From: a bacterium
GTDB lineage: Bacteria; Verrucomicrobiota; Verrucomicrobiia; Limisphaerales; UBA11358
NCBI GenBank assembly: GCA_021817945.1
Contig: JAKAFL010000013.1
Span: forward strand, 4,559-68,558
Length of the DNA stretch: 64,000 nucleotides
Direction: 5' to 3'
Below are positions 2,411-52,363 of this stretch, in pieces. The number at the start of each line of letters is the position of its first letter. The stretch's first letter is position 1. The notes under the pieces are model-generated. The model ran no database searches, was not told the origin of the DNA, and saw only the letters and a program-made list of their open reading frames with translations. The translations under genes and the position numbers were made by a program.

Positions 2411-5400
2411 ATGGAAATACCTAAGAAATCGAATTCTAAAACCAACGCGTCCGAGGGCGGGAACAAGCACCAAGGCAAGGTGACAACGGTGCCGCCTGAG
2501 GCGGTTCCTTTGCCGCCAATGTTCCGGCGGGTGGACTGGCTTACTTTTGGGCTGACCTTCCTGATTATCTGGGTGGTTTACCTCTGGACACTCGCCCCGG
2601 AGCTGACCTTGGAGGATTCAGGGGAATTGTGCACGGGTTCTTTCTATGCGGGCATACCCCACCCTCCAGGATACCCGTTCTGGGCCATTTACAGTTGGTT
2701 TTGGACCTTTATCCTGCCGATCGGCAATGTGGCGTGGCGCGTGGAGGTGGGGCAGTCCTTCGCCGCCGCCATGGGCTGCGGGATGCTGGCAATGATGGTT
2801 TCGCGCGGCAGCAGCATGCTCATGGAGGGCATTGAAGACCTGGCCAACATTCCACGGACTTGGGAAAGCTCCATTTGTTTCGTGTCCGGATTGGTCAGCG
2901 GGCTGCTGACCGGGTTGGACGGTTTCATGTGGGGTGAATCCGTGGTCATCAACCGGATTTCAGTTTTTGCGGTGCCTTGGATGATCGCGGTGACCCTGTG
3001 CCTGATGCGATGGTCCTACACTCCGGCCAGGCTGCGTTACTTGTACCTTGGCATGTTCCTCTACGGCATCTGCGCCACCATCCACCAAACCATGTTGCTC
3101 AGCGCGATGGGGGTGGAAGTGATCATCATCATGGCGCAACCCAGGTTGGGTCGTAGTTTTGCCCTCACCAACGGCGTTCTCTACCTCTGTATTTCCATAG
3201 CCAAGTACTACCTTCAAATCCCCGCCCTGCAAGCCATGGCAAGCGTCGAGACGGATGTCTTCAATGTGGTTGGAATTGTCTCCATCGGAGCCTACATCTG
3301 GCTGGCGGCCATCACCAAGATAAGCCCCCAGGAATTGCTTCGCGACGCCGCATGGTTCGGAATATTCCTATTTTTCGCCATGGCAGCCACGGGCTGGGGT
3401 CTTTTTGGCGTCCTATTATGCCTGGCATGCCTGGCGGCATTCATCAAGCTCGCCTGGGATACCCGCAAGTTGGACTACGGATGGCTTGTCATCATCCTCT
3501 GCGGCCTGGTTTGGATTTTGGGTGTTTCCTTTTATTTCTATGAAGCCATTTCCTGCATGACGGATCCTCCCATGCAATGGGGGTACCCACGAACGGTCGA
3601 AGGTTTCTTCCACGCCTTGAGCCGCGGGCAATACAACTCCGTCAGCAACGGTCCTTTTTTTGAGGGATTCGGAAGGATGGTTTTCCAACTCTGGTACCTT
3701 ATCCAGGGCTTGGCGGAATCCTTTAGCTGGGTGCTGATTTTTGTAGGACTGCTTCCGTTCCTGATCATTGGCCGCATGCATCGTCGGGAAAGGGGCTGGA
3801 TCATCGGCATCACCTCCATGTATTTCTGCCTGGCCGTTTTGCTGGTGCGCCTTTTGGACGTCACCCCGGACCTGTCCACCACTGACTTGAACGAGGTTTT
3901 TCTCACGGCATCCCACGCCCTTTTCGCCATTTTGATCGGGTATGGGCTGACCGTGATCGCTGCCTACGTGGCCAATCACTATGCAACAGTCCGCAAATGG
4001 TGCTTTGTGGGTGGATCGCTTGCCGTGCTCCTTGCCTTTTATTGCCTGGTCAAGGCAGTGGGCAAATTGTACTTCGGCCAATCGGGCCAGATGAGAATCT
4101 CGTGGCTGCCGTTCAATGACTGGATCGGCTGGGGCTATCTGGCATTTGGCCCAAAAGGCCAGTTTGGAATTGGAGATCTTTTCCATTGGGTGGTCCAGGC
4201 TTTTGCCCCGCATCAGTACGGATTGCCGGTTCTGGCCAGCCTCGTCCTCATGGCTCTCCCGGTCCTTTTCATGATTGCCCTGGTGGTTTACAAAAACCGG
4301 GGACCGGTGCTGATCCTCCTTGCTCTCATCCTGGTCACACCCATTTTTTCAGCCATGACCCACTGGTACACCAGCGAGCAGCGCAACCACTGGTTCGGAT
4401 ACTGGTTTGGCCATGACATGTTCACCCCGCCTTTCGTGGACACGAATGGCAAATTCAGTTACGACAACTCCCGGCGCGCGGAATTATTAAAGGACCCATC
4501 CAAAGCCAGCCTGATCTATCCGGAAATGGCGCGCGACACGATCCTGTTTGGTGGAACCGACCCCGGCCGCTTCTGCCCCACCTACATCATTTTCTGCGAA
4601 AGTTTCATCCCCCACTATTGCCAACCCAAGCAAGACCAGAAGTTTGACCGTCGTGACGTGTATATCATCACCCAGAATGCGCTGGCCGATGGCACTTATC
4701 TCGACTACCTGCGGGCGCAATACAACCGGTCCAAGCAGACTGATCCGCCCTTTTTCAGCCGGTTTTTTCGCTATGTCACCACCCTTCTCACCGGCGTGGG
4801 TAAAGGTTCGGTGGCTGTGGATGGATCAGACCTGGGCAGCGGCGATTCCGGAAACGCAGTCGTGGAAGGAATCTGCTCACTGCTCAATTACACCTTGGAT
4901 GTGCCGTTCACCAAATGGGGTGCCTATGTGGAGAAATACCGCCGGGCCGAGGGTGTCTATCCCCCGAAAGAGATTTACATTCCCACGCCAACCGATTCCC
5001 AGAATTGTTTTCAAAGCTATGAGGAAGACGTGGCTCGGCGCCAGCAACTGGGCCAGTTGAAACCCGGCGAGGATGTCAACGTGGAAAACGGCAGGGTTCA
5101 GGTTTCCGGCCAGGTGGCGGTCATGGAAATCAATGGCCTGCTTTGCAAGGTCATATTTGACCAAAACCCCACCAATGAGTTTTACGTGGAGGAAAGTTTT
5201 CCCCTGGATTGGATGTACAACTACGAGACCCCGTTCGGGATCATCATGAAAATCAACCGGCAACCGGTTTATGAGTTGAGCGACGACGTCTTCAAGCGGG
5301 ACCACCTTTTTTGGTCCACCTATTCGGAACGTTTGTGCGGCAATTGGATCAACTATGACACTTCCGTGAAGCAGATTGCCGACTTTGTGGATCAGGTGTA

Positions 5401-6256
5401 CATCAAGCACAATTACAAGGGTTACACGGGCAATCCGGCATTTGTGCGGGATGAGGACGCCCAAAAGGCATTTTCCAAGCTCCGGAGTTCACAGGCCGGA
5501 ATGTATGCCTGGAGATGCGCGCCCACCTGCCCTCCGGAATACCGCCAGAAAACCCCGGCCAGCCAGGAAGCTTTGCGTCGGGAGGCGGATTTCGCATTCA
5601 AACAGGCTTTTGCCTTCTGTCCCTACAGCCCGGAGGCGGTCTATCGTTATATAAACTTCCTTCTTCAATACGGCAGACTGGACGATGCTTTAATTGTGGC
5701 GCAGACCTGCCAGAAGCTGGATCCATTTAACGACCAGATAGCCGGGACCGTGGAGCAGTTGAAGAACTATAAATCCCAAAACACCGAAAGGACCCAGGCC
5801 ATTGCCCAATTAGGTTCCATGGAAGACACGGCACGCACCAACCCGGACAACATCTCCAACCTGATCCGGCTCGGCGGAACCTACCTGGCCATGCAAAACA
5901 CCAATCAAGGTTTCCATTTCCTTGACGAGGCCCTCAAATCCCCGGCCATCAGTTACCAGGACGCCACGGCGGTGGCTCAATATTTTGAGCAAATGGGAAA
6001 CATAACTGGTTTTCAAGGCGCAATGGAGCGGCTGGTTGAAATCGCCCCCACCGAACCGGACCCTCCTTTCCACCTGGCCGAGGTCATGGCCGTGACCGGT
6101 CATCCTGACCAAGCTCTGGCATATTTGAGGCAGGCAGTGGCCCTAAGCCGCAAAAAAAGTTCCGCCAGCAACCTGGCCAGCCAGGCAGCCATGGACCCCA
6201 ACCTGGCCCCCCTGCGAAACCTTCCTGAATTCCAAAAAATCATTTCAGGCAATTGA
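2411..6256 (+). CDS. DUF2723/TMEM260-like polytopic membrane glycosyltransferase with C-terminal TPR-like repeats
   Basis: TLAP...EDSGEL....GIPHPPGYP signature, many hydrophobic helices, helical repeat C-terminus. Confidence 0.8.
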   Translation: MEIPKKSNSKTNASEGGNKHQGKVTTVPPEAVPLPPMFRRVDWLTFGLTFLIIWVVYLWTLAPELTLEDSGELCTGSFYAGIPHPPGYPFWAIYSWFWTFILPIGNVAWRVEVGQSFAAAMGCGMLAMMVSRGSSMLMEGIEDLANIPRTWESSICFVSGLVSGLLTGLDGFMWGESVVINRISVFAVPWMIAVTLCLMRWSYTPARLRYLYLGMFLYGICATIHQTMLLSAMGVEVIIIMAQPRLGRSFALTNGVLYLCISIAKYYLQIPALQAMASVETDVFNVVGIVSIGAYIWLAAITKISPQELLRDAAWFGIFLFFAMAATGWGLFGVLLCLACLAAFIKLAWDTRKLDYGWLVIILCGLVWILGVSFYFYEAISCMTDPPMQWGYPRTVEGFFHALSRGQYNSVSNGPFFEGFGRMVFQLWYLIQGLAESFSWVLIFVGLLPFLIIGRMHRRERGWIIGITSMYFCLAVLLVRLLDVTPDLSTTDLNEVFLTASHALFAILIGYGLTVIAAYVANHYATVRKWCFVGGSLAVLLAFYCLVKAVGKLYFGQSGQMRISWLPFNDWIGWGYLAFGPKGQFGIGDLFHWVVQAFAPHQYGLPVLASLVLMALPVLFMIALVVYKNRGPVLILLALILVTPIFSAMTHWYTSEQRNHWFGYWFGHDMFTPPFVDTNGKFSYDNSRRAELLKDPSKASLIYPEMARDTILFGGTDPGRFCPTYIIFCESFIPHYCQPKQDQKFDRRDVYIITQNALADGTYLDYLRAQYNRSKQTDPPFFSRFFRYVTTLLTGVGKGSVAVDGSDLGSGDSGNAVVEGICSLLNYTLDVPFTKWGAYVEKYRRAEGVYPPKEIYIPTPTDSQNCFQSYEEDVARRQQLGQLKPGEDVNVENGRVQVSGQVAVMEINGLLCKVIFDQNPTNEFYVEESFPLDWMYNYETPFGIIMKINRQPVYELSDDVFKRDHLFWSTYSERLCGNWINYDTSVKQIADFVDQVYIKHNYKGYTGNPAFVRDEDAQKAFSKLRSSQAGMYAWRCAPTCPPEYRQKTPASQEALRREADFAFKQAFAFCPYSPEAVYRYINFLLQYGRLDDALIVAQTCQKLDPFNDQIAGTVEQLKNYKSQNTERTQAIAQLGSMEDTARTNPDNISNLIRLGGTYLAMQNTNQGFHFLDEALKSPAISYQDATAVAQYFEQMGNITGFQGAMERLVEIAPTEPDPPFHLAEVMAVTGHPDQALAYLRQAVALSRKKSSASNLASQAAMDPNLAPLRNLPEFQKIISGN

Positions 6257-39632: not shown

Positions 39633-39762
39633 TCTATTTTAAGCGGACAACACCATGGCAAACGCCACGAACCCATGAACAAAATATTCAAACAATTCTC
39701 CCACACTAATCCCAGTGGGTCAAATGTTGAACGTATCCGTGTCAGCAACCGATTGCTCTGGT

Positions 39763-40116
39763 ATGAAAGACGAGCAACAGCGATTTCTGGCGCTCTTGGG
39801 CCAACTGCCCGTTCGCCTGACGGCAGAGCAAGCGGGCTGGGTGTTGAACTGCCAGCCGCACGACTTTCCCGCGCTGGTCAATGCGCGGCTACTCAAGCCA
39901 CTGGGCAATCCCTCGCAAAATTCTACCAGGTATTTTGCCACAGTGGACGTGGTTGATCTGGCAAAAGACCGCTCCTGGCTGGTCAAGGTCACAAATACGA
40001 TCTGCCAGCATTGGCAGAGGCAAAATGCGGCAAAAAAGCAAAAACTGAACGGAAACGGGCGCAAAAGCGGGTTTGAATTGGGCGAAATCAAAGAAAATCA
40101 GGCGGTTGCCCGCTAA
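39763..40116 (+). CDS. Small putative DNA-binding (excisionase/HTH-like) protein
   Basis: LTAEQAGWVLN..HD...LV...LLKPLG...RYF pattern resembles MerR-like/Xis HTH proteins. Confidence 0.55.
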   Translation: MKDEQQRFLALLGQLPVRLTAEQAGWVLNCQPHDFPALVNARLLKPLGNPSQNSTRYFATVDVVDLAKDRSWLVKVTNTICQHWQRQNAAKKQKLNGNGRKSGFELGEIKENQAVAR

Positions 40117-40228: not shown

Positions 40229-41371
40229 ATGCGAGCAGGCAAATATGTAAAACAAGTGGAAGGATACCGGGCTTTCATCCCAGCCCCGCTTCCACCGCTG
40301 CCGCCCATTGCGATGGATGCGGAACTGACCCGGCTGCTGTCCGAAGCGGATCATGCCCTTGGACGGCTGGACGGCGTCACCTCCATTTTGCCCAATTCTG
40401 ATTTATTCGTGTCCATGTATGTCCGCCATGAGGCGGTGCTAAGTTCGCAAATCGAGGGCACGCAAAGCACGCTTGAAGACGTGCTGCAATTTGAGATGGA
40501 CGCCAAAGGCCAGGAGCATCCCAAAGACGTTGAGCAAGTCTTCAATTACGTCCGCTCCATGAATCACGGCTTGAAGCGTCTGAATTCCTTGCCGCTTTCC
40601 TTGCGCCTCATTCGGGAAATCCATGAAAAACTTTTGCAGGGCGTTCGCGGCGCGAACCGCACGCCGGGAGAATTCCGCCGCAGCCAGAACTGGATCGGCC
40701 CGGCGAACTGCACCTTGGCGACGGCCACCTTTGTCCCGCCTCCAGTCCATGACATTCAGGAGGCGCTCGCCAACCTGGAAAAATTCCTGCAGGATGAAAA
40801 GACCTACCCGACATTGATTCAATGCGGCCTGGCTCATGCGCAATTTGAAACCATTCACCCATTTCTGGATGGCAATGGCCGTGTTGGGCGCTTGCTCATT
40901 ACTTTCCTGCTCTGCCAGCGTGGCATTCTGAAATTTCCCCTGCTGTATCTGAGCCATTACCTCAAATTCCACCGGGCGGAGTATTACGACCGGCTTATGG
41001 CAATCCGTAACGACGGCAATTGGGAGAGCTGGTTAAAATTCTTCCTCAAGGGCGTGGGAGAGGTCAGTCGTTCGGCCACTGAAACAGCCCGGAAAATTTT
41101 GGAACTGCGGCAGAAGCATCAAGCTCTGATCCGGGACAAAGCTTCCAACCAGACAAATGCCGGGCTGCTGTTGGATTACCTGTTTGAACAGCCGATGGTG
41201 AACGTGCGACTTGTCGAAGACCACGTCAAATGCGCCTTTGTGACTGCGGACAAACTGCTCAAGCAGTTTGAAGAACTCGGCATCGTGAAGGAAGTCACGG
41301 GCGGGCGACGCAATCGGCGTTACGAATATTCGCCCTACCTGGCGTTGTTTGAACCTGCGGAAATCAACTAG
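40229..41371 (+). CDS. Fic-family protein (class II, auto-inhibited) with C-terminal HTH
   Basis: Canonical HPFLDGNGRVGR; N-terminal SSQIEG inhibitory motif. Confidence 0.93.
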   Translation: MRAGKYVKQVEGYRAFIPAPLPPLPPIAMDAELTRLLSEADHALGRLDGVTSILPNSDLFVSMYVRHEAVLSSQIEGTQSTLEDVLQFEMDAKGQEHPKDVEQVFNYVRSMNHGLKRLNSLPLSLRLIREIHEKLLQGVRGANRTPGEFRRSQNWIGPANCTLATATFVPPPVHDIQEALANLEKFLQDEKTYPTLIQCGLAHAQFETIHPFLDGNGRVGRLLITFLLCQRGILKFPLLYLSHYLKFHRAEYYDRLMAIRNDGNWESWLKFFLKGVGEVSRSATETARKILELRQKHQALIRDKASNQTNAGLLLDYLFEQPMVNVRLVEDHVKCAFVTADKLLKQFEELGIVKEVTGGRRNRRYEYSPYLALFEPAEIN

Positions 41372-41566: not shown

Positions 41567-41911
41567 TTTTTGTGCCCGAGCCGGAGCGGTTGTGAGGGGG
41601 CTTGGCCGAACAGCCGCCGGTGAAGTGGAGCAAGAATGCGCGTTGGTCACGGCAACCTGGTTTTTGATAGTCAGAAATCAGTTTTTTGCCCCGAGGCATC
41701 ATTCTTTCGAGTTTGCATTCGCGTCATTTTGAAATACTCTGGCGGTCAAGACGCACAAGAACAATGGATTAAGTTCTGGATCGCCTGCCGGGAAATGAAG
41801 CAACGCCGCCATGCTGAAAAGATATTTCTGGAATGACGCCGCCCCGTTCTGCTCCAGCCCCGGCGCGGAATGCCGGTGATGTTCCGCATGAGTTTCCAGT
41901 CCTATACAAGC

Positions 41912-44900
41912 ATGGAAGTCATTGACAACATCAATCAACTGCTGGGCGACAACCTGAAGCAGACGATTACGCCGGGATCAAAGCTCAAAATCGCGGCGTC
42001 GTGCTTTTCCATCTACGCCTTCGAGTCACTCAAGGCAGAACTGGAAAAGATTGATTCGCTTCAGTTCATTTTCACTTCACCCACGTTTGTTCCCGGCGAA
42101 GTGACGGACAAGTTGAAAAAAGAGCATCGCGAATTCCACATTCCCAAACTGGAGCGCGAGCGCAGCCTTTACGGCAGTGAATTTGAAGTCCGTCTGCGCA
42201 ATGAACTCACCCAGCGTGCCATTGCCAAAGAGTGCGCGGAATGGATGCGGCAGAAGGCGATCTTCCGGTCAAATCGCGGGAACGCCCCGATGCAACAGTT
42301 TGCCGCCGTCACGGCCGGGGATAAAGAATCGGTGTATCTGCCGCTGCACGGATTTACCGCCGTTGATCTGGGTTACGAAAAAGGCAACGCTGTCTCCAAT
42401 TTCGTCAACCGTTTCGATGAGCGATCCTTCACCTCGAACTATCTTTCGCTTTTTGATCAAATCTGGAGCAACCCGGAAAAGCTCGAAGATGTGACGGCCC
42501 GGCTTTGCGAGCACATCGCCTCCGTGTATCAGGAAAATTCGCCCGAGCGCATTTACTTCCTGATGCTCTACAATATTTTCAGCGAATTCTTGGAAGACAT
42601 CACGGCGGACGTTTTGCCTAACGACCGCACGGGTTATCAAGACAGCCTGGTGTGGAAGAAGTTGTTCAACTTCCAGCGCGATGCCGCCACCGGCATCATC
42701 AACAAGCTGGAAACCTACAACGGTTGTATCCTCGCGGACAGCGTGGGGCTGGGGAAAACCTTCACCGCCCTGGCGGTCATCAAGTATTACGAGTTGCGCA
42801 ACCGGTCTGTTCTGGTTCTTTGCCCCAAAAAACTCACGGACAACTGGCTCACCTACCGGGGCAATCTGATCACCAACATTTTTGCCAAGGACCGCTTCGG
42901 CTACGATGTCCTTTGCCATACCGACTTGCTCCGTGAAAGCGGCCTGTCTGTCAGCGGTATGCCGCTCAACCGTGTCAACTGGGGCAATTACGATCTGGTG
43001 GTCATTGACGAGTCGCACAACTTTCGCAACAACGATCTCTACCGCGAACGCGAGACCCGCTATCAGCGTCTCTTGAACCAGGTCGTCCGGCAGGGCGTGA
43101 AAACCAAAGTGCTGATGCTCTCCGCCACCCCCGTGAACAACCGCTTCTCGGACCTGAAAAATCAGCTCGCGTTGGCTTACGAAGGCGACCCGGAAAATCT
43201 CAGTTCCAAGTTGAAATCCGACAAGCACATTGATGAAATCTTCCGCCGTGCCCAGGCCGCGTTCAATGCGTGGTCCGCACTGCCGCCAGCAGAACGCACC
43301 GCCACCGCGATTCTAAATGCCCTCGACTTTGATTTTTTTGAGGTGCTGGACAGTGTGACCATCGCCCGCTCGCGGCGTCACATTCAGACCTATTATGACA
43401 CGAAAGACATTGGCACCTTTCCCGAACGGCTCAAGCCGTTGTCCTTCCACTGTCAGCTCACGCACCGCAAGGACGTCATCGGCTTCAACGAGATTTTTGA
43501 CCGCCTGAGCAAACTCTCGCTCGCGGTGTATGCCCCCTTGAGCTACGTGCAACCGAGCCGGCTGTCCGGCTACGAGGAACTTTACGACCCTGATTCGGAT
43601 CAAGGGCATGAGAATCTCAAACAGTCGGGACGCGAAAAGGGCATTCAGGCGTTGATGACGGTCAACCTGCTCAAGCGTCTGGAAAGCTCCGTCCATTCCT
43701 TCCGGCTCACCCTGAAAAGTCTGGCCGGCAATCACCAAAGCACGCTGGACAAAATTGCCGCCTACAAGAAAACCGGGCGGGACGCCACCTTTGCCGATGT
43801 CTCGGCCGCCTTCGCGGATGTGGAACCCGATGATGACGACGAACCGCCGAATCCCGAAGATTCCCAGATTGGAAGCAAGGTGCAGATCAAACTTTCCGAC
43901 ATGGACATCCCGAGCTGGGAGCAGGAGTTGTCGGCGGATCTGGTCATCATCAATGATTTGATTTCCGAAATGGAGAAGGTCACGCCATCAGATGACGCCA
44001 AGCTCCAGCACCTCAAAACCACCATTCTCAGCAAGCTGGCTTCGCCCATCAATCAGGGCAACCGCAAAGTCCTTATTTTTACCGCGTTTGCCGACACGGC
44101 CGATTACCTGTTCGATCACCTTTCTCCTTTCTTTCTCGAATCTCAAAGCATTCATACCGCCGAGGTCACTGGCGGTAATCGCCGTCAACGCAGCACGCTT
44201 AAAAAAAACTACGATTTCCAATCGCTACTCACGCTCTTTTCGCCACTGTCCAAACAGAAAGCCGCCATTCTGCCCAAGGAGCCGGACGAGATTGATCTGC
44301 TCATCGGCACGGACTGTATTTCCGAGGGGCAAAACCTTCAGGATTGCGATTATCTGGTCAACTACGACATCCACTGGAATCCCGTCCGCATCATCCAGCG
44401 CTTTGGCCGCATTGACCGCATCGGCTCGCAAAACGCGTCCATCCAGTTGGTCAACTACTGGCCCGACATCACGCTGGACGATTACATCAATTTGAAGGAG
44501 CGCGTCGAAAACCGGATGATCATTGCCGATGTCACCGCCACCGGCGATGACAACCCGCTGGATTCCCGCGCCAATGATGTCGCCTATCGTCGCGAACAAC
44601 TCCGACGTTTGCAGGATGAAGTCGTAGAACTGGAAGACCTCAAGACTGGCATCTCCATCACCGATCTGGGTTTGAACGATTTTCGCATGGATCTCGTGAA
44701 CTATGTGAAAACGCACGCCGATCTCGCCAGCCTGCCGAATGGCATGCACGCCGTGGTGGCCGCCGCCCCGGAACGCGGCCTCGTGCCCGGTGCCATCTTC
44801 GCCCTGCGCAACCGTAACGACAGCGTCAATATCAACCGCCAGAACCGCCTGCATCCGTATTACCTCGTCTATATCGCTCAGGACGGCACCATCGTTGCCA

Positions 44901-45301
44901 ATCACACCGAGGCCAAACGGCTCCTGGATCTGGCCCGTTCCGCGTGCAAGGACCGGAGCGTGCCAATCCCGGAAGTTTATCAGGCGTTCAACAAGGCCAC
45001 CAAGGATGGACGCCGGATGGACGCCTACTCCGAACTGCTCGGCACGGCCATTCGGTCCATGATCGAGCTGAAGGCGGAGAAGGACATTGACAGCCTGTTC
45101 TCCGGCGGCAAAACGACCGCTTTGGTCAATTCCATCAGCGGCCTGGACGATTTTGAGCTGATTGCGTTCATTGTCTTTTATGATCCTTCCAGCGCCGATG
45201 GCGGCACAACCCGGCATGTGATCGAGACCATGCTCAAGAAGCGGGGGGCGAAAGTGACCAGCCAGCTCATCTACGAAATCATGGAACGGGAGGGAATTTG
45301 A
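41912..45301 (+). CDS. SNF2-family helicase associated with type III RM, with an atypical C-terminal tail
   Basis: LADSVGLGKT, IDESHNFR, LSATP, SEGQNLQ, QRFGRIDRIG. Confidence 0.92.
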   Translation: MEVIDNINQLLGDNLKQTITPGSKLKIAASCFSIYAFESLKAELEKIDSLQFIFTSPTFVPGEVTDKLKKEHREFHIPKLERERSLYGSEFEVRLRNELTQRAIAKECAEWMRQKAIFRSNRGNAPMQQFAAVTAGDKESVYLPLHGFTAVDLGYEKGNAVSNFVNRFDERSFTSNYLSLFDQIWSNPEKLEDVTARLCEHIASVYQENSPERIYFLMLYNIFSEFLEDITADVLPNDRTGYQDSLVWKKLFNFQRDAATGIINKLETYNGCILADSVGLGKTFTALAVIKYYELRNRSVLVLCPKKLTDNWLTYRGNLITNIFAKDRFGYDVLCHTDLLRESGLSVSGMPLNRVNWGNYDLVVIDESHNFRNNDLYRERETRYQRLLNQVVRQGVKTKVLMLSATPVNNRFSDLKNQLALAYEGDPENLSSKLKSDKHIDEIFRRAQAAFNAWSALPPAERTATAILNALDFDFFEVLDSVTIARSRRHIQTYYDTKDIGTFPERLKPLSFHCQLTHRKDVIGFNEIFDRLSKLSLAVYAPLSYVQPSRLSGYEELYDPDSDQGHENLKQSGREKGIQALMTVNLLKRLESSVHSFRLTLKSLAGNHQSTLDKIAAYKKTGRDATFADVSAAFADVEPDDDDEPPNPEDSQIGSKVQIKLSDMDIPSWEQELSADLVIINDLISEMEKVTPSDDAKLQHLKTTILSKLASPINQGNRKVLIFTAFADTADYLFDHLSPFFLESQSIHTAEVTGGNRRQRSTLKKNYDFQSLLTLFSPLSKQKAAILPKEPDEIDLLIGTDCISEGQNLQDCDYLVNYDIHWNPVRIIQRFGRIDRIGSQNASIQLVNYWPDITLDDYINLKERVENRMIIADVTATGDDNPLDSRANDVAYRREQLRRLQDEVVELEDLKTGISITDLGLNDFRMDLVNYVKTHADLASLPNGMHAVVAAAPERGLVPGAIFALRNRNDSVNINRQNRLHPYYLVYIAQDGTIVANHTEAKRLLDLARSACKDRSVPIPEVYQAFNKATKDGRRMDAYSELLGTAIRSMIELKAEKDIDSLFSGGKTTALVNSISGLDDFELIAFIVFYDPSSADGGTTRHVIETMLKKRGAKVTSQLIYEIMEREGI

Positions 45302-45305
45302 CGCC

Positions 45306-45716
45306 ATGTTCCTGCTCGACATTAATGTCCTGATCGCCCTGGCCGATCCTGATCACGAGCACCACGGGAAGGCCGAATCCTTTTTCCTCGCGAACCACCG
45401 GCTCGGTTGGGCGACCTGTCCGCTGACGGAAAATGGCTTTGTCCGCATCCTCGGCAGTGCCAGCTATCCCAAAGGTCCGGACAGTTCGGATGCCGCCTGC
45501 GCCATTTTGAAACACCTATGCGCCCAGCCGGGTCATCGTTTCTGGACCGACGACCTTTCGCTCCGGGGTTCGCCAAATCTGCCCGTCTCCAAACATTTGA
45601 CCGATCATTATCTGCTCAGTCTGGCTATGCATCGCCAGGGCAAACTCGTCACGTTCGACCGCCATATTCAGGCTGGGAGGATTCCCGGCGGAGCCGCCGC
45701 ATATCTGGTGATTTGA
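45306..45716 (+). CDS. vapC: PIN-domain VapC-family ribonuclease toxin
   Basis: LLDINVLIAL, TENGFVRI, LTDHYLL, LVTFD acidic tetrad. Confidence 0.9.
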   Translation: MFLLDINVLIALADPDHEHHGKAESFFLANHRLGWATCPLTENGFVRILGSASYPKGPDSSDAACAILKHLCAQPGHRFWTDDLSLRGSPNLPVSKHLTDHYLLSLAMHRQGKLVTFDRHIQAGRIPGGAAAYLVI

Positions 45717-45721
45717 CTGCC

Positions 45722-46378
45722 ATGTTTGCCTATCCACGACAAACTGAATTCAACCGCCCGGTCCCCAAAACCAAAATTTACGCGCACGCCCGCGCCTCCA
45801 AACGTCTCAAGGAACTTTTTGTGGCCCAGGTTGGAGAAATCGTATGGAAATACAAACTGTCGCCCGAGACGGTCAACCTGCCGGCGCGGAATGGCATCTC
45901 TGAAATCCAGGTGTTTGAACTGATGCTCAAGACGCCGGAACTGGACGACGCCGTGCTCGCGACGCTGGACAAAGCCATCCCGTTCCCGCTGCTTTTCCAG
46001 CTCGTTCATGACGGGCAAATCCGCTTTGCCGCCGCTTACAAACGCCCCAGCGAAGCGGACGCTTCCAAATGGGTCGTGGAAGCCCGGTTTCAAACCGGCC
46101 CGCAGCCGGTGGGCGCGGAACGTCCGCCGTTGCCGGTGGCCCTGGATCTCGCCGGCCTTTACGAACAGCTCGTTCGCCGTCACATTGCGTTGCCGCCGCG
46201 CGCGGGAGAAGGCATCATGGAACACGTGACTCGTTTTAATGCGATTACGGCAAAACAACACACCAGACGGCAACTGGAAACCCGTCTGGCCCAAGAAAAG
46301 CAATTTAACCGAAAAGTAGAAATGAACGCCGCACTACGTTCGCTAATGAATGAAATCAGGAGCCTGGCACACATTTAA
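45722..46378 (+). CDS. DUF4391 family protein
   Basis: PKTKIY, IVWKYKL...VNL, EIQVF, DKAIP, EKQFNRKVEMN; usual position between helicase and mod. Confidence 0.85.
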   Translation: MFAYPRQTEFNRPVPKTKIYAHARASKRLKELFVAQVGEIVWKYKLSPETVNLPARNGISEIQVFELMLKTPELDDAVLATLDKAIPFPLLFQLVHDGQIRFAAAYKRPSEADASKWVVEARFQTGPQPVGAERPPLPVALDLAGLYEQLVRRHIALPPRAGEGIMEHVTRFNAITAKQHTRRQLETRLAQEKQFNRKVEMNAALRSLMNEIRSLAHI

Positions 46379-46387
46379 AATATCTCG

Positions 46388-47449
46388 ATGAAATCCCTAA
46401 TCCAATTGCAACTCCCGTCCGGCCGGAAAACCGAGTCTGTTGATCAAGCAATTTTGACATTATCTTCGAGCGTAAAATGGGAGCAAATTTCAGCGGCAGT
46501 AGCGTATTCGTCCTTAGCAGGCGTCGCTAGACTTCACGAAGTTGTTTACTCGGTTCAGCCGGAAGTTTCGTTCAGGTGGCTGCTGGGGCTTGATGACTAT
46601 GTAACTCAACCCGGAGCAATTGATTTCTGCTGTTCAATCAAAAATTCAGTTGTCAAAGTTTATTCGTCCAAGACGCCAAGAACACGTTTCCATCCGAAAG
46701 TGCTTCTGTTTGATTCCGTAACTAGCTATCCGTCTTCTTCAATGATTGTTGGTTCCGCTAATTTAACATTCGCTGCGCTCAATCGTAACTGCGAAGCTAT
46801 TGCGGTTCTCGCCGCACAAAATCACGACGAGCAAAACCTAATGCGCTCACGGTTCAATTCATTGTGGAAACTCGGCACAGAACCAACTTCCTCTATTCTG
46901 GCCGACTATCGGAAGAAATTTGAAAAGCATCGTAAATCCCGTGCTTTCCTTTTGGATACAGAAAGTGAGAGTTCAGCAAATAAGGGCCAAATTCTCCATT
47001 CAGACGCAGCCATCATCAATCCCGGTTCGGCAACTGTATGCTGGATTGAGGTGGGAAAAAACACGGCAATGGGAAAGGAGCTAGAAGTTAAAGGTGAACA
47101 AGTGCGATTTTTTGGACTTGAGCCAACCGGAGAAGCTGCTGCTTTCCGTGATTTTCGCGTTTCAAGTGGAGACACGGTTCCACTTCGCTTGAAATATCAG
47201 GGTAATGCGATGTGGCGATTGCAACTCCACTCAAACGTTCCAGAGGTTGCCACTGGACTTCGGCCAATTGTCAATGGACGACTTGGACGAAGTCCATACG
47301 TTGCAGTCTTCAAACGGATTACCAAAGAAAACCTTTATTCTCTATCGTTTCCAAGATGCGACTCAGAAGAATTTGCAAAAATCCGAAAACAGTCGGAAAT
47401 CTCTGGAACAATAGGAAGCACTTCGTCGCGAGAATACGGCTGGTATTAA
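46388..47449 (+). CDS. Phospholipase D (HKD)-family nuclease
   Basis: AVAY, FHPKVLLFD (HxKxxxxD), VGSANLT....NCEA as in BfiI/NgoFVII-like nucleases. Confidence 0.82.
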   Translation: MKSLIQLQLPSGRKTESVDQAILTLSSSVKWEQISAAVAYSSLAGVARLHEVVYSVQPEVSFRWLLGLDDYVTQPGAIDFCCSIKNSVVKVYSSKTPRTRFHPKVLLFDSVTSYPSSSMIVGSANLTFAALNRNCEAIAVLAAQNHDEQNLMRSRFNSLWKLGTEPTSSILADYRKKFEKHRKSRAFLLDTESESSANKGQILHSDAAIINPGSATVCWIEVGKNTAMGKELEVKGEQVRFFGLEPTGEAAAFRDFRVSSGDTVPLRLKYQGNAMWRLQLHSNVPEVATGLRPIVNGRLGRSPYVAVFKRITKENLYSLSFPRCDSEEFAKIRKQSEISGTIGSTSSREYGWY

Positions 47450-47461
47450 ATAATCAATCAA

Positions 47462-49330
47462 ATGAACAAACTCAAACTTCATTCACTAGATTGCACTAAA
47501 GAGCGAGTAATGCAGATTGCCACATTATTTCCACATTGTATCACGGAAGCTAAAGACGATAATGGGACGCCTTTTCAGGCTGTAGATTTTGATCTGTTGC
47601 GACAAGAGCTGTCATCCTTTGTTGTTGATGGCCCAACTGAGCGATATGGACTGAACTGGCCTGGTAAACGCGAAGCGTTAGTGACCGCAAATATGCCAGT
47701 GGCAAAAACACTGCGCCCAGCCGTTTCGGAAAGTGTTGAATTTAATGACACACAGAACTTGCTTATTGAGGGTGACAATCTTGATGGCCTGAAACTCCTA
47801 CAAGAAACATTTCTCAACAGAATTAAAATCATCTGCATCGATCCCCCATACAATACAGGTCAGGATTTTCTTTACGAAGACGACTTTGCTGAAAACCTTG
47901 AGACTTACTTGGAAAAAAGCAATCAGAGGGACGAATTGGGAAGCCGTTTGATAACCAACACAGAGTCAAACGGTCGCTTTCACTCTGACTGGCTTTCGAT
48001 GATGTATCCACGGCTAAAACTTGCTCGAAACCTTCTTCGGGAAGATGGTGTGATCTTCATTACGATTTCTGACGTAGAAGTCGGAAATTTACGAAAGCTG
48101 TGCGATGAAGTTTTCGGCGAAGCAAACTTTGTAGCCAACATAATTTGGCAGAAAAAATATACTCGTGCAAACGATGCAAAATGGTTTTCCGATAACCATG
48201 ATCACGTCCTTTGTTTCGCTAGGGACAAAAGTTGTCTTCGTCTGAACAGTCTTCCGCGTAGTGAAGAACAGCTTTCTGCGTATTCAAACCCTGACAATCA
48301 TCCTAAGGGGCGCTGGAAGGCCACACCACTTCACGCGAAAAGTGGCACCAACACAAAATCCTACACGTTTCTCAACGGAACTACTTGGGCGCCGCCTGCC
48401 GGCACTTTTCGTCGCTTTAATGATGATTCAATGCGGGAAATGGATAAAGGAAATGAAATTTGGTTCGGCGCAGATGGGAAGCAGACACCGAGCAGGAAAA
48501 GCTTTCTCAACGAAATCAAAGCCGGTGTAGTGCCAGTCACAATTTGGCCTTACGATGAGGTTGGACACAATCACGAAGCTAACAACGAACTCAAGGAACT
48601 AGGGTTGAATGGAGTCTTTGACAACCCTAAACCGTCACGACTATTTAAGCGGGCTATTTTTCTTGCTAGTTCGTCGCAGAAAGATGACATCGTTTTGGAT
48701 TTCTTCGCCGGATCGGCAACGACTGCAAGTGCGGTGATGAAACTAAACGCCGAAGATGGCGGAAACAGGCGGTTTATTCTGATGCAATTAGCCGAGCCAT
48801 GCAACAAGGCATCCGAGGCATTTAAAGCTGGTTTTACATCCATTTGTGACGTTAGCAAAGAGCGAATTCGCCGAGCTGGCACTAAGATCAAAGCCGAAAA
48901 TGCCACGACGGCTCCTAACCTCGACATTGGCTTCCGCGTCCTGAAGATTGACACGTCGAACATGGCGGACGTGTATTACGCACCGGACGTGGTGAAGCAG
49001 GCCGACCTGGTGGCGCACACGGACAACCTCAAGCCCGACCGGACGCCGGAGGATTTGCTCTTTCAAGTGCTGGTGGATTGGGGCGTGGACCTGTCCCTCC
49101 CCATCCAGCCGGAAACGATTGCCGGCAAGAAGGTGTTCTTCGTGGATGGCAACGCGCTGGCCGCCTGTTTCGATCCCAAAATCAGCGAAGACCTGGTGAA
49201 GGCGCTGGCCCAACGCAAACCGCTCCGCGCCGTCTTCCGCGACAGCAGCTACGCCAGCGACAGCACCAAGATCAACGTGGAGCAAATTTTCAAGCTCCTC
49301 AGCCCGGAAACCGAAGTGAAGTCGCTGTAA
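47462..49330 (+). CDS. mod: Type III restriction-modification methyltransferase
   Basis: IEGDNL, IDPPYNTG, HSDWLSMMYPRL, NPKP, LDFFAGSATT. Confidence 0.95.
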   Translation: MNKLKLHSLDCTKERVMQIATLFPHCITEAKDDNGTPFQAVDFDLLRQELSSFVVDGPTERYGLNWPGKREALVTANMPVAKTLRPAVSESVEFNDTQNLLIEGDNLDGLKLLQETFLNRIKIICIDPPYNTGQDFLYEDDFAENLETYLEKSNQRDELGSRLITNTESNGRFHSDWLSMMYPRLKLARNLLREDGVIFITISDVEVGNLRKLCDEVFGEANFVANIIWQKKYTRANDAKWFSDNHDHVLCFARDKSCLRLNSLPRSEEQLSAYSNPDNHPKGRWKATPLHAKSGTNTKSYTFLNGTTWAPPAGTFRRFNDDSMREMDKGNEIWFGADGKQTPSRKSFLNEIKAGVVPVTIWPYDEVGHNHEANNELKELGLNGVFDNPKPSRLFKRAIFLASSSQKDDIVLDFFAGSATTASAVMKLNAEDGGNRRFILMQLAEPCNKASEAFKAGFTSICDVSKERIRRAGTKIKAENATTAPNLDIGFRVLKIDTSNMADVYYAPDVVKQADLVAHTDNLKPDRTPEDLLFQVLVDWGVDLSLPIQPETIAGKKVFFVDGNALAACFDPKISEDLVKALAQRKPLRAVFRDSSYASDSTKINVEQIFKLLSPETEVKSL

Positions 49331-49333
49331 GTC

Positions 49334-52300
49334 ATGAAGCTGAAATTCAAACAGCAGCGCTACCAGACGGATGCCGTCAAGGCGGTGGTGGATTGCTTCG
49401 CCGGCCAGCCCAAAAGCAAAGGGTTCAAATATGCAGTGGATCCCGGTCGCACGGCGGCTGGAGCGGCGGCCGCTTTGCCCGGCACCGAAGCGGAAGGTTT
49501 CGCCAACGAAAAAATCGCCCTCTCCCACGCCCAGGTGCTGGGAAATTTGCAAGCCGTCCAGCGGCGGCAAAATCTCACCGTCTCGCCCGAACTGAAAAAG
49601 ACTTCCGTCTGCGACGTGAATCTGGATGTGGAGATGGAAACCGGCACGGGCAAGACGTATTGCTACATCAAGACGATGTTTGAGCTGCACCGGGAATACG
49701 GCTGGGGTAAGTTCATCGTGGTGGTGCCCAGCATCGCCATCCGGGAAGGCGTCATGCAGTCCTTCGAGCTGATGACGGAACATTTCCTGGAACAATACGG
49801 CAAGCGCGTCCGCTTTTTCATTTATAACTCCAAGCAATTGCACAATCTGGAGAGCTTTTCCTCCGATGCCGGCATCAACGTGATGATCATCAATGTGCAG
49901 GCTTTCAATGCGCGGGGCGAGGATGCCCGGCGCATTTATGCGGAGCTGGATGATTTTCAATCGCGCCGGCCCATTGATGTGATTTCCAAGAACCGCCCCA
50001 TCCTGATCCTGGATGAACCGCAGAAAATGGAAGGCAAGGCGACGACGGAGAAGCTGGCGGAGTTCCATCCGCTGATGATTCTGCGCTATTCCGCCACACA
50101 CAAGACCGAGCACAACAAGGTGTATCGGCTGGATGCCATTGACGCCTACAACCAGAAGCTGGTGAAAAAGATCGCCGTGCGCGGCATCACGGTCAAGGGG
50201 CTGTCCGGCACGAACGCCTATCTTTATCTGGAATCCATCAAGATTTCGACCACCAAGCCGCCGGAAGCGCGGGCCGAGCTGGAGATTCAGCAAAAGAGTG
50301 GCATCAAGCGCGTGTTGCGCATGTTGCGCAAGAACGACAATCTTCACGCTTTGTCCGACGGCTTGGAGCAATATCGCGGCTTCGTGGTGTCCGACATCAA
50401 TGCGATTGAGAACACCATCAGCTTCACCAATGGCGTCGTGCTTGGTGCCGGTGAGGCCACCGGTGACGTGAGCGAATCCGCCTTGCGCCGTATCCAGATT
50501 CGCGAGGCCATCAAGGCGCATTTTGAAAAGGAAAAACTGCTCTTTGCCCAGGGTATCAAGGTGCTGTCCCTGTTCTTCATTGATGAAGTCGCAAAATATC
50601 GCAGCTATAACGAGACCGGCGAACAGGCTGGTGAATATGCCCAGGTGTTCGAGGAGGAATACAACAGCCAGCTTAATGAAGTGCTGACCCTGGAAGACAC
50701 GCCCTACAACCGCTATCTCAAAGGCATTCAAACCAGCCTGACGCACGACGGCTATTTCTCCATAGACAAAAAAACGAACCGGCTGGTGAATCCCGAAGTG
50801 GAGGCGCGCGGCGAATCCGCCGGCGAGGCCAAAGATGTGGATGCCTACGATCTCATATTGCGGGACAAGGCGCGCCTGCTGAATTTCGATGAACCGGTGC
50901 GATTCATCTTCTCCCATTCTGCGTTGCGGGAGGGCTGGGATAACCCGAATGTCTTTGTCATTTGCACATTGAAACACAGCGACAACACGGTGTCGCGGCG
51001 TCAGGAAGTCGGGCGCGGTATGCGCCTCTGCGTAAACCAAAACGGGGATCGGATGGATGATCCAGCCATTGTCCATCAGGTGAACGTGCTGACTGTGGTG
51101 GCCAACGAGAGCTACAAGAATTTTGTTGCCGGCTTGCAAAAGGACATCAGCAACTCGCTGTCAGCCCGGCCCAAGCAGGCCAACCAGGAGTATTTCACGG
51201 ACAAGGTGCTCAAGACACCGACGGGCGATGTGAAGGTGACACCGCAGTTGGCCAAGCTGATCGAGCGTTATCTGGTGAAAAACGATTATTCCGACACCGA
51301 CGAGCGTATCACCGAAGATTACCATCAGGCCAAAAAGGAGGGCGCACTGGCTCCGTTGCCGGCAGAACTGGAGCCTTTCAAGGAGCAGGTCTTTCAACTC
51401 ATTGACAGCGTGTTCAGCACGTCGCAGTTGCCCGAAATTGACGATGACCGCCAGGGCAAGGTGAACCCACTCAATGCCAATTTTGAGAAGAAGGAATTTC
51501 AAGAGCTGTGGGGCCGCATCAACCGCAAAGCCATTTACGCTGTTGATTTTGAAACCAACGAGCTGGTTACGAAGTGCATCAAAACACTCGACAAAGAACT
51601 CAAAGTGACGCCACTGCAATACACGGTGACTGCCGGAGAACAGACCCAGGAGGCCACTTATGAGGCGATGAAAAAGGGCGACGCGTTTGTGCTGAAGGAA
51701 AACGCCACCGGCCACCTGACCAGCTCGGCGCGCTCCGCCGTGAAATATGACCTCATCGGGAAACTGGCAGAAGCCACCCAACTGACGCGGCAGACCATCG
51801 CGGGCATCTTGCGGGGCATCAATGTTGCGGTATTCAGCCAATACAAAACCAACCCGGAAGATTTTATTCTTAAGGCCGGCACGCTCATCAACGAGCAGAA
51901 GGCCACGGTCATTGTCGAACACCTCGCCTACGATCCGCTGGAGGACAGCTACGGCATTGACATTTTCACGCAGGAGAAAAAGGAGGACTTGAGCAAAGGC
52001 TTCAAAGCAACCCGGCACATTTACGACTACGTCTTCACCGACTCCTCCAACGAACGGACCTTCGTCGGCGAACTGGATGCCAGCTCGGAGGTGGTCGTTT
52101 ACGCAAAATTGCCGAAAGCCTTCCACATCCCGACGCCCGTGGGAAACTACAATCCCGACTGGGCCATCGCCTTTCAATCCGGCAAAGTGAAGCACATCTA
52201 TTTCGTGGCCGAAACCAAAGGCTCCATGTCCTCTATGGATTTGCGAAAGATCGAAGAATCCAAGATCGAATGCGCCCGCAAATTTTTCGCCAGGATCACC

Positions 52301-52363
52301 AGCGCCCAGGTGAAATATGACGTCGTGAACAGCTATGGAAAATTAATGGAATTGGTGAAGTAA
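49334..52363 (+). CDS. res: Type III restriction endonuclease
   Basis: [34 protein letters not shown]...ETKG nuclease motif. Confidence 0.95.

Follow-up and report, generated by a model that had tools for sequence, protein, structure and literature searches.

Toxin–antitoxin pairs and restriction systems are well known, as are guardians like PrrC, an RNase that is kept latent by the restriction enzyme. In solved VapBC complexes, the C-terminal part of the antitoxin VapB wraps around the toxin VapC and blocks its active site. Here, we analyzed a stretch of 64,000 nucleotides (nt) from a bacterium of the Verrucomicrobiota lineage UBA11358 (GenBank assembly GCA_021817945.1, contig JAKAFL010000013.1, positions 4,559 to 68,558 of the forward strand), referred to as the window in the following. 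It contains a SNF2-family helicase gene, part of a Type III restriction-modification/DUF4391 operon, which is directly followed by a gene for a PIN-domain protein of the VapC family. Based on sequence comparisons, we consider it likely that a toxin-binding VapB peptide has been grafted in frame onto this helicase and keeps the VapC RNase latent. The graft would comprise the last 24 residues of the helicase in the window and about 35–40 residues in a sister group.

Several described systems resemble parts of this arrangement. The Type IC locus EcoprrI encodes the anticodon nuclease PrrC, which is kept masked by non-covalent binding to the enzyme complex and is presented as a restriction ‘guardian’ (PMC12707154). 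HEC-03 consists of an ABC ATPase and a VapC-like PIN protein embedded in a defence operon, and its authors describe no link of the ATPase to VapB (10.1101/2024.01.29.577857). The toxin–antitoxin pair of Pez-Ham is complete and acts as a transcriptional regulator (PMC13064477).

The helicase ends in a VapB-like segment

An earlier reading of the window, made from the sequence alone (the sequence-only reading), stated that the helicase runs about 40 amino acids (aa) past its expected end and stops 4 bp before the vapC ATG. Both statements hold. The C-terminus reads ...LDDFELIAFIV followed by FYDPSSADGGTTRHVIETMLKKRGAKVTSQLIYEIMEREGI and the stop codon TGA at 45299–45301, which is separated by a 4-nt spacer from the PIN start codon (ATG at 45306). 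The protein extends 41 residues beyond the usual end of its family, as judged from a search with helicase residues 880–1143, from which the 120 best clusters were listed. A VapB-like tail is absent from 81 of these 120 clusters, 79 of which terminate 2 to ∼20 residues past the motif DFELIAF(I/L)V, most of them after 3–5 residues, and the other two carry an unrelated extension. A tail of 40–50 residues is present in the other 39, and its last part, LKKRG.KVTS..IYEIME.EGI, is nearly invariant. The best PADLOC match to the helicase is C3a139 (‘HKD+Snf2’), and this profile stops at residue 1103, where the tail begins. An AlphaFold2 (AF2) model of the C-terminal 264 residues including the tail reached a mean predicted local distance difference test (pLDDT) value of only 55.2. 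When the tail alone was compared with Pfam, we obtained just a chance match to BRCT (E 0.14–0.21), and NCBIfam returned nothing.

To place the tail, we compared it with the antitoxins of related toxins. Free-standing PIN relatives were sought in 401 genomes of the phylum, 39 of which matched (including the window's own), and 30 loci were examined. In 28 of these 30 loci, the free-standing PIN homologue (36–58% identical) is directly preceded by a gene encoding 74–102 aa; the exceptions are L102, with a broken PIN gene, and L110, where the upstream gene is of a different type. The products of these antitoxin genes start with M[KR]TTLD..D.L..AK, and their N-terminal halves show sub-threshold matches to PF09957 (VapB_antitoxin) and to ribbon-helix-helix families. 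Their profile aligns with VapB26 of PDB 5x3t (E 0.0056) over the ribbon-helix-helix part only. Their C-termini, encoded just 5′ of the PIN start and hence in the same position as the helicase tail, contain motifs such as ...HLKKRGVKITSDLVYQMLENEDA or ...LPARGEPVTLDQVQALMDEEGI.

An hhalign comparison of 40 tails with 28 free antitoxins gave a probability of 95.3% (E 2.3e-8) over 24 columns, in which tail residues 18–41 align with the antitoxin C-terminus. Tail-less helicase C-termini and reversed tails, which served as controls, gave 0.1% each. By BLASTP, the tail of the window matches the VapB of locus L084 with 12/20 identities (E 4e-8) at VapB residues 62–81 of 83. The sister-group tail of L131 matches the same VapB with 16/35 identities (E 4e-10) at residues 49–83 of 83, and this graft keeps most of VapB that lies C-terminal of the ribbon-helix-helix part. 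Judged by these alignments, the last 24 residues of the helicase are homologous to the C-terminal end of VapB antitoxins, with the DNA-binding half missing: the ribbon-helix-helix module (M[KR]TTLD...AK in the free antitoxins) is absent from the tail. Nor is the tail a small free-standing protein, being part of a 1143-aa helicase in the window and fused to the helicase in all 14 tail-bearing loci described below. It is located directly upstream of the toxin gene, with a spacer of 4 nt in the window and of 4–14 nt across the 14 loci. The sequence-only reading had likened the tail to the toxin-binding C-terminus of the VapB type that is paired with this VapC. This assignment is supported by the significant hhalign and BLASTP results, the clean controls, and the perfect co-occurrence of tail and PIN gene. 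The motif that it named, R.G..VT...V......EG, fits the C-terminal sequences of the antitoxins that are actually found upstream of free-standing PIN homologues.

A different element occurs after the helicase gene in several Akkermansiaceae loci. This repeated sequence (translated, ...LDCGSLLPLS(R/Q)SQPAGPEAK...) is intergenic in loci including L023, L026, and L029, and its read-through gives the protein clusters P0116 and P0117 a spurious C-terminal extension.

Tail and PIN gene occur together and are under selection

With the helicase C-terminus, 80 related genome loci were fetched. The tail is present in 13 of them, so that 14 tail-bearing loci are available together with the window. In all 13, a PIN gene starts 4–14 nt past the helicase stop codon and is followed by a DUF4391 gene; a PIN gene at that position is absent from all 67 tail-less loci. 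Tail-bearing loci were found in Verrucomicrobiota and Betaproteobacteria records. Among 39 metagenome loci, all 21 PINs of 64–83% identity with readable upstream DNA come after a helicase tail, and in the 11 loci with a free vapB every PIN is at most 54% identical; the remaining seven loci are unreadable or unclear. The genome and metagenome counts are not fully independent, because some metagenome loci represent the same DNA as genome loci. A search for other helicases with this tail followed by a PIN gene, as proposed by the sequence-only reading, was successful in both data sets (13/13 genome loci; 21/21 metagenome PINs of at least 64% identity).

The PIN gene is intact in 12 of the 13 tail-bearing genome loci. 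The decayed copy belongs to L008 (3803–4210), a complete chromosome record, in which the PIN gene after the tail is frameshifted: the alignment covers only residues 1–105 (39% identity), and the C-terminal part lies in a different frame. L008 still has the tail, in a more diverged form.

We next estimated the ratio of nonsynonymous to synonymous substitution rates (dN/dS), with values that are rough because synonymous sites are near saturation. For 45 pairs of tail-bearing loci, dN/dS was 0.079 for the helicase C-terminus, 0.104 for the linker between helicase and VapB-like segment, and 0.079 for the 24 VapB-like codons, and for the PIN gene it was 0.070 (28 pairs). By this measure, purifying selection acts on tail and PIN as strongly as on the helicase. 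The linker varies more than the remaining tail, and its residues ‘IE’ correspond in the alignment to the motif S[DE].IE of free VapBs.

We also looked for the tail outside the helicase. A word-indexed search in shorter proteins yielded seven matches, and the four sequences retrieved are fragments of the same helicase. An exhaustive profile search of 1.84 billion representatives resulted in 128 matches at E ≤0.001, nearly all of them small proteins matching at their C-terminus. Three long matches from this search were rejected as repeat proteins aligned to unrelated profile columns. One protein, P0128 (158 aa; found on one NCBI contig of 3539 nt), contains the same 40-residue tail including the linker (32/40 residues identical to the window's) behind 118 unrelated N-terminal residues that do not resemble the helicase. 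This protein represents either a second host of the graft or a fragment produced by rearrangement.

The PIN gene encodes a probable VapC RNase

The PIN protein is a member of the VapC family TIGR00028 (88.6 bits; cut-off 73.6), and its score against Pfam PIN (20.7) is below the cut-off of 23.6. Its AF2 model has a pLDDT of 95.5, and the best Foldseek matches are VapC toxins with template modelling (TM) scores of 0.65–0.79, the highest being 7vwo_A (0.79). Residues D5, D100, and D118 are invariant in 40/40 aligned PIN sequences, and position 42 is occupied by E here and in most rows and by Q in several free-standing homologues. In line with what is established for PIN domains, we take D5, E42, D100, and D118 to be the catalytic positions. 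With a score above the family cut-off, a predicted VapC fold, and the acidic residues kept, the protein looks active as a VapC RNase. Only a PIN domain was recognized in it, with no homology to the PrrC type (ABC ATPase plus anticodon nuclease), and PADLOC gave no match for this protein. The gene is present as a single copy in the window's own genome.

The fusion lies in a restriction operon with an insertion hotspot

The genes from Fic to Res form a row on the + strand (Fic-helicase-PIN-DUF4391-PLD-Mod-Res), which is operon-like (Table 1). PADLOC detects both the Mod and the Res gene, which assigns the locus to the Type III restriction-modification systems, and the PIN gene is placed between the helicase and DUF4391 genes, upstream of both. 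A 133-aa open reading frame (ORF) without a family (39715–40116) precedes the SoFic-type Fic gene. DUF4391, which is seldom named in the full-text literature, is a constant neighbour of the helicase family: it is located downstream in 79 of the 80 related loci, and in the other one, L022, the contig ends first.

Table 1. Features of the operon and of the helicase–PIN junction in the window.
Feature	Position	Strand	Evidence or remark
SoFic-type Fic gene	40229–41371	+	PADLOC SoFic, E 5.8e-125; directly upstream of helicase gene
SNF2-family helicase gene with fused tail (1143 aa)	41870–45301	+	Pfam SNF2-rel_dom, ResIII, Helicase_C
Linker, helicase residues 1103–1119, FYDPSSADGGTTRHVIE	45176–45226	+	Stands in place of the family's usual last residues (3–5 in most tail-less clusters)
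Predicted VapB-like toxin-binding segment, residues 1120–1143, TMLKKRGAKVTSQLIYEIMEREGI	45227–45298	+	hhalign, BLASTP
Shine-Dalgarno-like sequence GGGAGGGA	45288–45295	+	Within last tail codons (R-E-G), ∼10–12 nt 5′ of PIN ATG; read from sequence
PIN-domain VapC-family gene (136 aa)	45306–45716	+	TIGR00028
DUF4391 gene	45722–46378	+	PF14335, E 1.7e-52
PLD-family (HKD) gene	46388–47449	+	PLDc_2, E 1.4e-8; low G+C (0.44–0.46)
Type III methyltransferase gene (Mod)	47462–49330	+	PADLOC MTase_III, E 1.1e-228; Pfam N6_N4_Mtase
Type III restriction enzyme gene (Res)	49334–52363	+	PADLOC REase_III, 1081.7 bits; Pfam ResIII + RE_endonuc

The G+C content is 0.43–0.46 in the PLD gene and in the first two-thirds of the methyltransferase gene vs 0.54–0.59 in the neighbouring genes. 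Because of its low G+C content and because no homologue is present in any of the 80 related loci, the PLD gene looks like a further, recent embedded gene. In the tail-less locus L020, the interval between DUF4391 and Res (4587–6084), where the window has PLD and Mod, contains two complete vapB-PIN-type cassettes, and no methyltransferase was seen there; the PIN of this locus lies further downstream than the helicase junction and has its own complete vapB. Assignment of the window's operon to DISARM was rejected, as DrmD (147 bits, cut-off 610) and DrmC (21.8, cut-off 133) both remained below threshold. DUF1998, which would indicate the DISARM partners DrmA/DrmB, had no match in the six operon proteins scanned (41870–52363).

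The junction between the helicase and DUF4391 genes is an insertion hotspot, because tail-less relatives hold unrelated inserts at this position. These include 23S_rRNA_IVP four-helix-bundle genes in L010 (3697–4080) and L048 (3708–4106), and an insert in L032 (3136–3510) that resembles them by eye only. The gap is occupied by an HTH_37 gene in L017 (3714–4097), by a gene for a 613-aa GmrSD_N protein in L041, with near-identical ORFs in L049 and L070 (3717–5558 in all three loci), and by ORFs without a family in L019 (3723–4271) and L046 (3907–5264). Such a hotspot fits the ‘embedded defence gene’ pattern that has been described in a preprint on such genes (10.1101/2024.01.29.577857).

A proposed tethered toxin and alternative explanations

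The helicase ends in a piece of an antitoxin and the gene for the matching toxin comes next, so the toxin is probably restrained by the helicase itself. In the mechanism that we propose, the PIN gene would be translated by coupling from a ribosome-binding site within the last tail codons, for which GGGAGGGA is the candidate. The tail would then bind and neutralize the RNase, with one VapC per tail, and each toxin molecule would remain latent on one helicase molecule. We infer this latency because the corresponding part of VapB is the one that blocks the active site of the toxin. Autoregulation of the usual VapB-mediated kind would be impossible, since both a free antitoxin and a ribbon-helix-helix domain for operator binding are missing, and expression would instead follow that of the helicase. 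Free RNase would appear only if the helicase or its tail is degraded or clipped, if helicase synthesis ends, or if a conformational change releases the tail.

Regarding the biological role, we give not quite an even chance to a second-line abortive response, in which the toxin acts when a phage disables or engages the restriction machinery, comparable to the guarding by PrrC. Addiction of the cell to the operon is possible, with a clearly smaller chance, and the rest of the probability goes to the alternatives discussed below. We also suggest, tentatively, a two-layer system with the helicase as sensor and the tethered VapC as suicide effector: a phage that blocks, degrades, or stalls the helicase would cause the VapB peptide to let go, and the RNase would stop translation. 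Such a system would be a guard of the PrrC type that arose when an antitoxin peptide was joined to the very protein under guard.

Could the fusion itself be an artefact of assembly or of a frameshift that hides a stop codon and a separate vapB? The chance of this is negligible, because the same continuous frame is found in 39 protein clusters as well as in 13 genome and 21 metagenome loci, and because contigs of other runs span the junction. Contigs 11 and 14 of X2, from another sequencing run, show 0 differences, and contig 14 bridges the stop codon and the ATG. X4, from another study, provides a 2412-nt contig across 44700–45691, which shows 64 differences and, after 45299, one additional base. 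An assembly error had been named beforehand as a fact that would overturn the fusion; the contigs of the independent runs carry the same frame, stop, and PIN start. Since these contigs share the junction, an assembly error and a one-off deletion are both ruled out. The sequence-only reading had also allowed for a chance deletion that fused vapB to the helicase. A private accident of this genome is excluded, because the fusion is conserved, occurs across two phyla, and is under purifying selection, while a deletion-fusion is still its likely origin. It is very improbable that a separate small peptide is the real antitoxin, encoded either by 23 codons from 45230 or from another internal start, and that the fusion to the helicase is incidental. 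An in-frame ATG at 45230, just before LKKRG, is present in the window, and six other loci share it, but the same codon is GCC, CTG, CTC, or CGA in 5/14 tail-bearing loci and could not be located by motif search in 2/14. Among the 39 tail-bearing clusters, the residue at this position is M, L, F, A, I, or R, and a Shine-Dalgarno-like sequence cannot be seen within 18 nt 5′ of the ATG. The 23-aa peptide, which had been raised as an option from the sequence, is disfavoured as a conserved product because its start codon (ATG in only 7/14 loci) is not conserved. The statement that no separate antitoxin ORF precedes the PIN gene agrees with our results: between 45000 and 45310, no other antitoxin-like ORF exists on either strand, and the VapB profile ranks the helicase tail first in a six-frame search. 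A profile search for a free VapB in the window's own genome (94.7% complete) gave nothing convincing (best E 0.3).

Two further explanations accept the fusion and assign it a different meaning. In the one, which we regard as unlikely, the tail would serve for docking instead of inhibition and bring an active PIN nuclease into the helicase or restriction complex as a functional subunit, to be delivered to phage nucleic acid, so that no latent toxin would exist. Large ATPases with VapC-like PIN effectors are indeed among the embedded defence candidates, and a PIN under purifying selection with a preserved active site would suit such a subunit. However, the grafted segment is homologous to the very part of VapB that blocks the active site in known VapBC pairs, and the closest free PINs all retain a full antitoxin, which is why we argue that members of this PIN family are toxic in the unbound state. 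In the other, a vapBC cassette entered the hotspot, a deletion fused the 3′ end of vapB to the helicase, and the product was kept only since loss of the tail would free the toxin, without any further role in defence or maintenance of the operon. The unrelated inserts at the helicase–DUF4391 junction of tail-less loci, the decayed PIN and diverging tail of L008, and the patchy distribution on the tree speak for such a frozen accident. We nevertheless consider it improbable: the PIN gene is as constrained as the helicase and intact in nearly all tail-bearing genome loci, and one would expect more frequent decay of a neutral toxin in a module shared by Verrucomicrobiota and Betaproteobacteria records. 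Even a frozen accident implies a working antitoxin tail.

Some observations weigh against a grafted antitoxin that keeps VapC latent. When the profile of the 28 free antitoxins was run by hmmsearch over 1222 six-frame segments of the window, the helicase C-terminus ranked first only weakly (5.2 bits, domain E 2.1), so the significance of the tail comes solely from the profile–profile and pairwise comparisons. PDB sequence searches with the PIN protein and the PIN profile gave 0 matches; as these searches returned no solved structure of this VapBC subfamily, the contact role of the tail motif is extrapolated from other VapBC pairs. Co-folding of PIN and tail, in a run without controls, reached a score of 0.14 vs a mark of 0.32 and speaks neither for nor against the pairing. 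Type II antitoxins are normally labile, while a helicase of 1143 aa may be stable. Finally, the tail is patchy on a tree of the helicase C-terminus, which was obtained by a quick, unfinished search: at least three changes are forced by well-supported branches, and six are needed on the tree as drawn. Because several changes are required, the module would have been gained, lost, or recombined several times, and its patchiness indicates that the tail-PIN module is dispensable for the restriction system.

Implications and comparison with known systems

At this locus, the coupling of a toxin to restriction can be read directly from the sequence: a predicted toxin-binding peptide has moved onto a defence helicase and is conserved and selected in many genomes. 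If the tail binds VapC as predicted, it offers a simple model for protein integrity as a life-or-death signal, and a minimal peptide of 24–40 residues with which VapC could be tethered to a chosen protein. If the helicase is indeed guarded in this way, the arrangement would represent a general route by which a toxin–antitoxin pair of any kind could be connected to any cellular ‘guardee’. For annotation, it is a caution that the antitoxin of an ‘orphan’ toxin may hide as the tail of a neighbouring gene.

In full-text literature searches, which covered main texts, we found no description of a VapB segment or other antitoxin fragment fused to a helicase. As in canonical type II VapBC pairs (e.g., VapBC26, PDB 5x3t), the toxin is a PIN protein, the neutralizing element is encoded just upstream and ends a few bases before the toxin start, and the C-terminal VapB motif is conserved. 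Unlike in these pairs, a SNF2 helicase of 1143 aa provides the predicted neutralizing segment as its C-terminus, and a free antitoxin is lacking. With PrrC, the locus shares an RNase gene inside a restriction-modification locus; latency through a protein of the locus and release when restriction is compromised would be common to both under the explanation proposed here. PrrC is, however, unrelated to PIN proteins and belongs to a Type IC system, whereas here the mask would be an antitoxin peptide grafted onto an accessory helicase in a Type III locus. CapRel SJ46 is also a phage defence protein with an antitoxin element covalently joined to a larger protein (PMC9712102). There, toxin and antitoxin form one polypeptide, whereas in our case the antitoxin piece resides on a third protein and the toxin is separate. 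HEC-03 and Pez-Ham resemble our locus in that a PIN gene or toxin–antitoxin pair is nested in a multi-gene defence system, and differ from it in that neither, as described, has an antitoxin fragment fused to a core helicase. Taken together, VapBC pairs and restriction guardians are known, and the locus appears to combine them in a new arrangement, with a type II VapBC pair that has been rewired through transfer of its antitoxin peptide onto a defence helicase.

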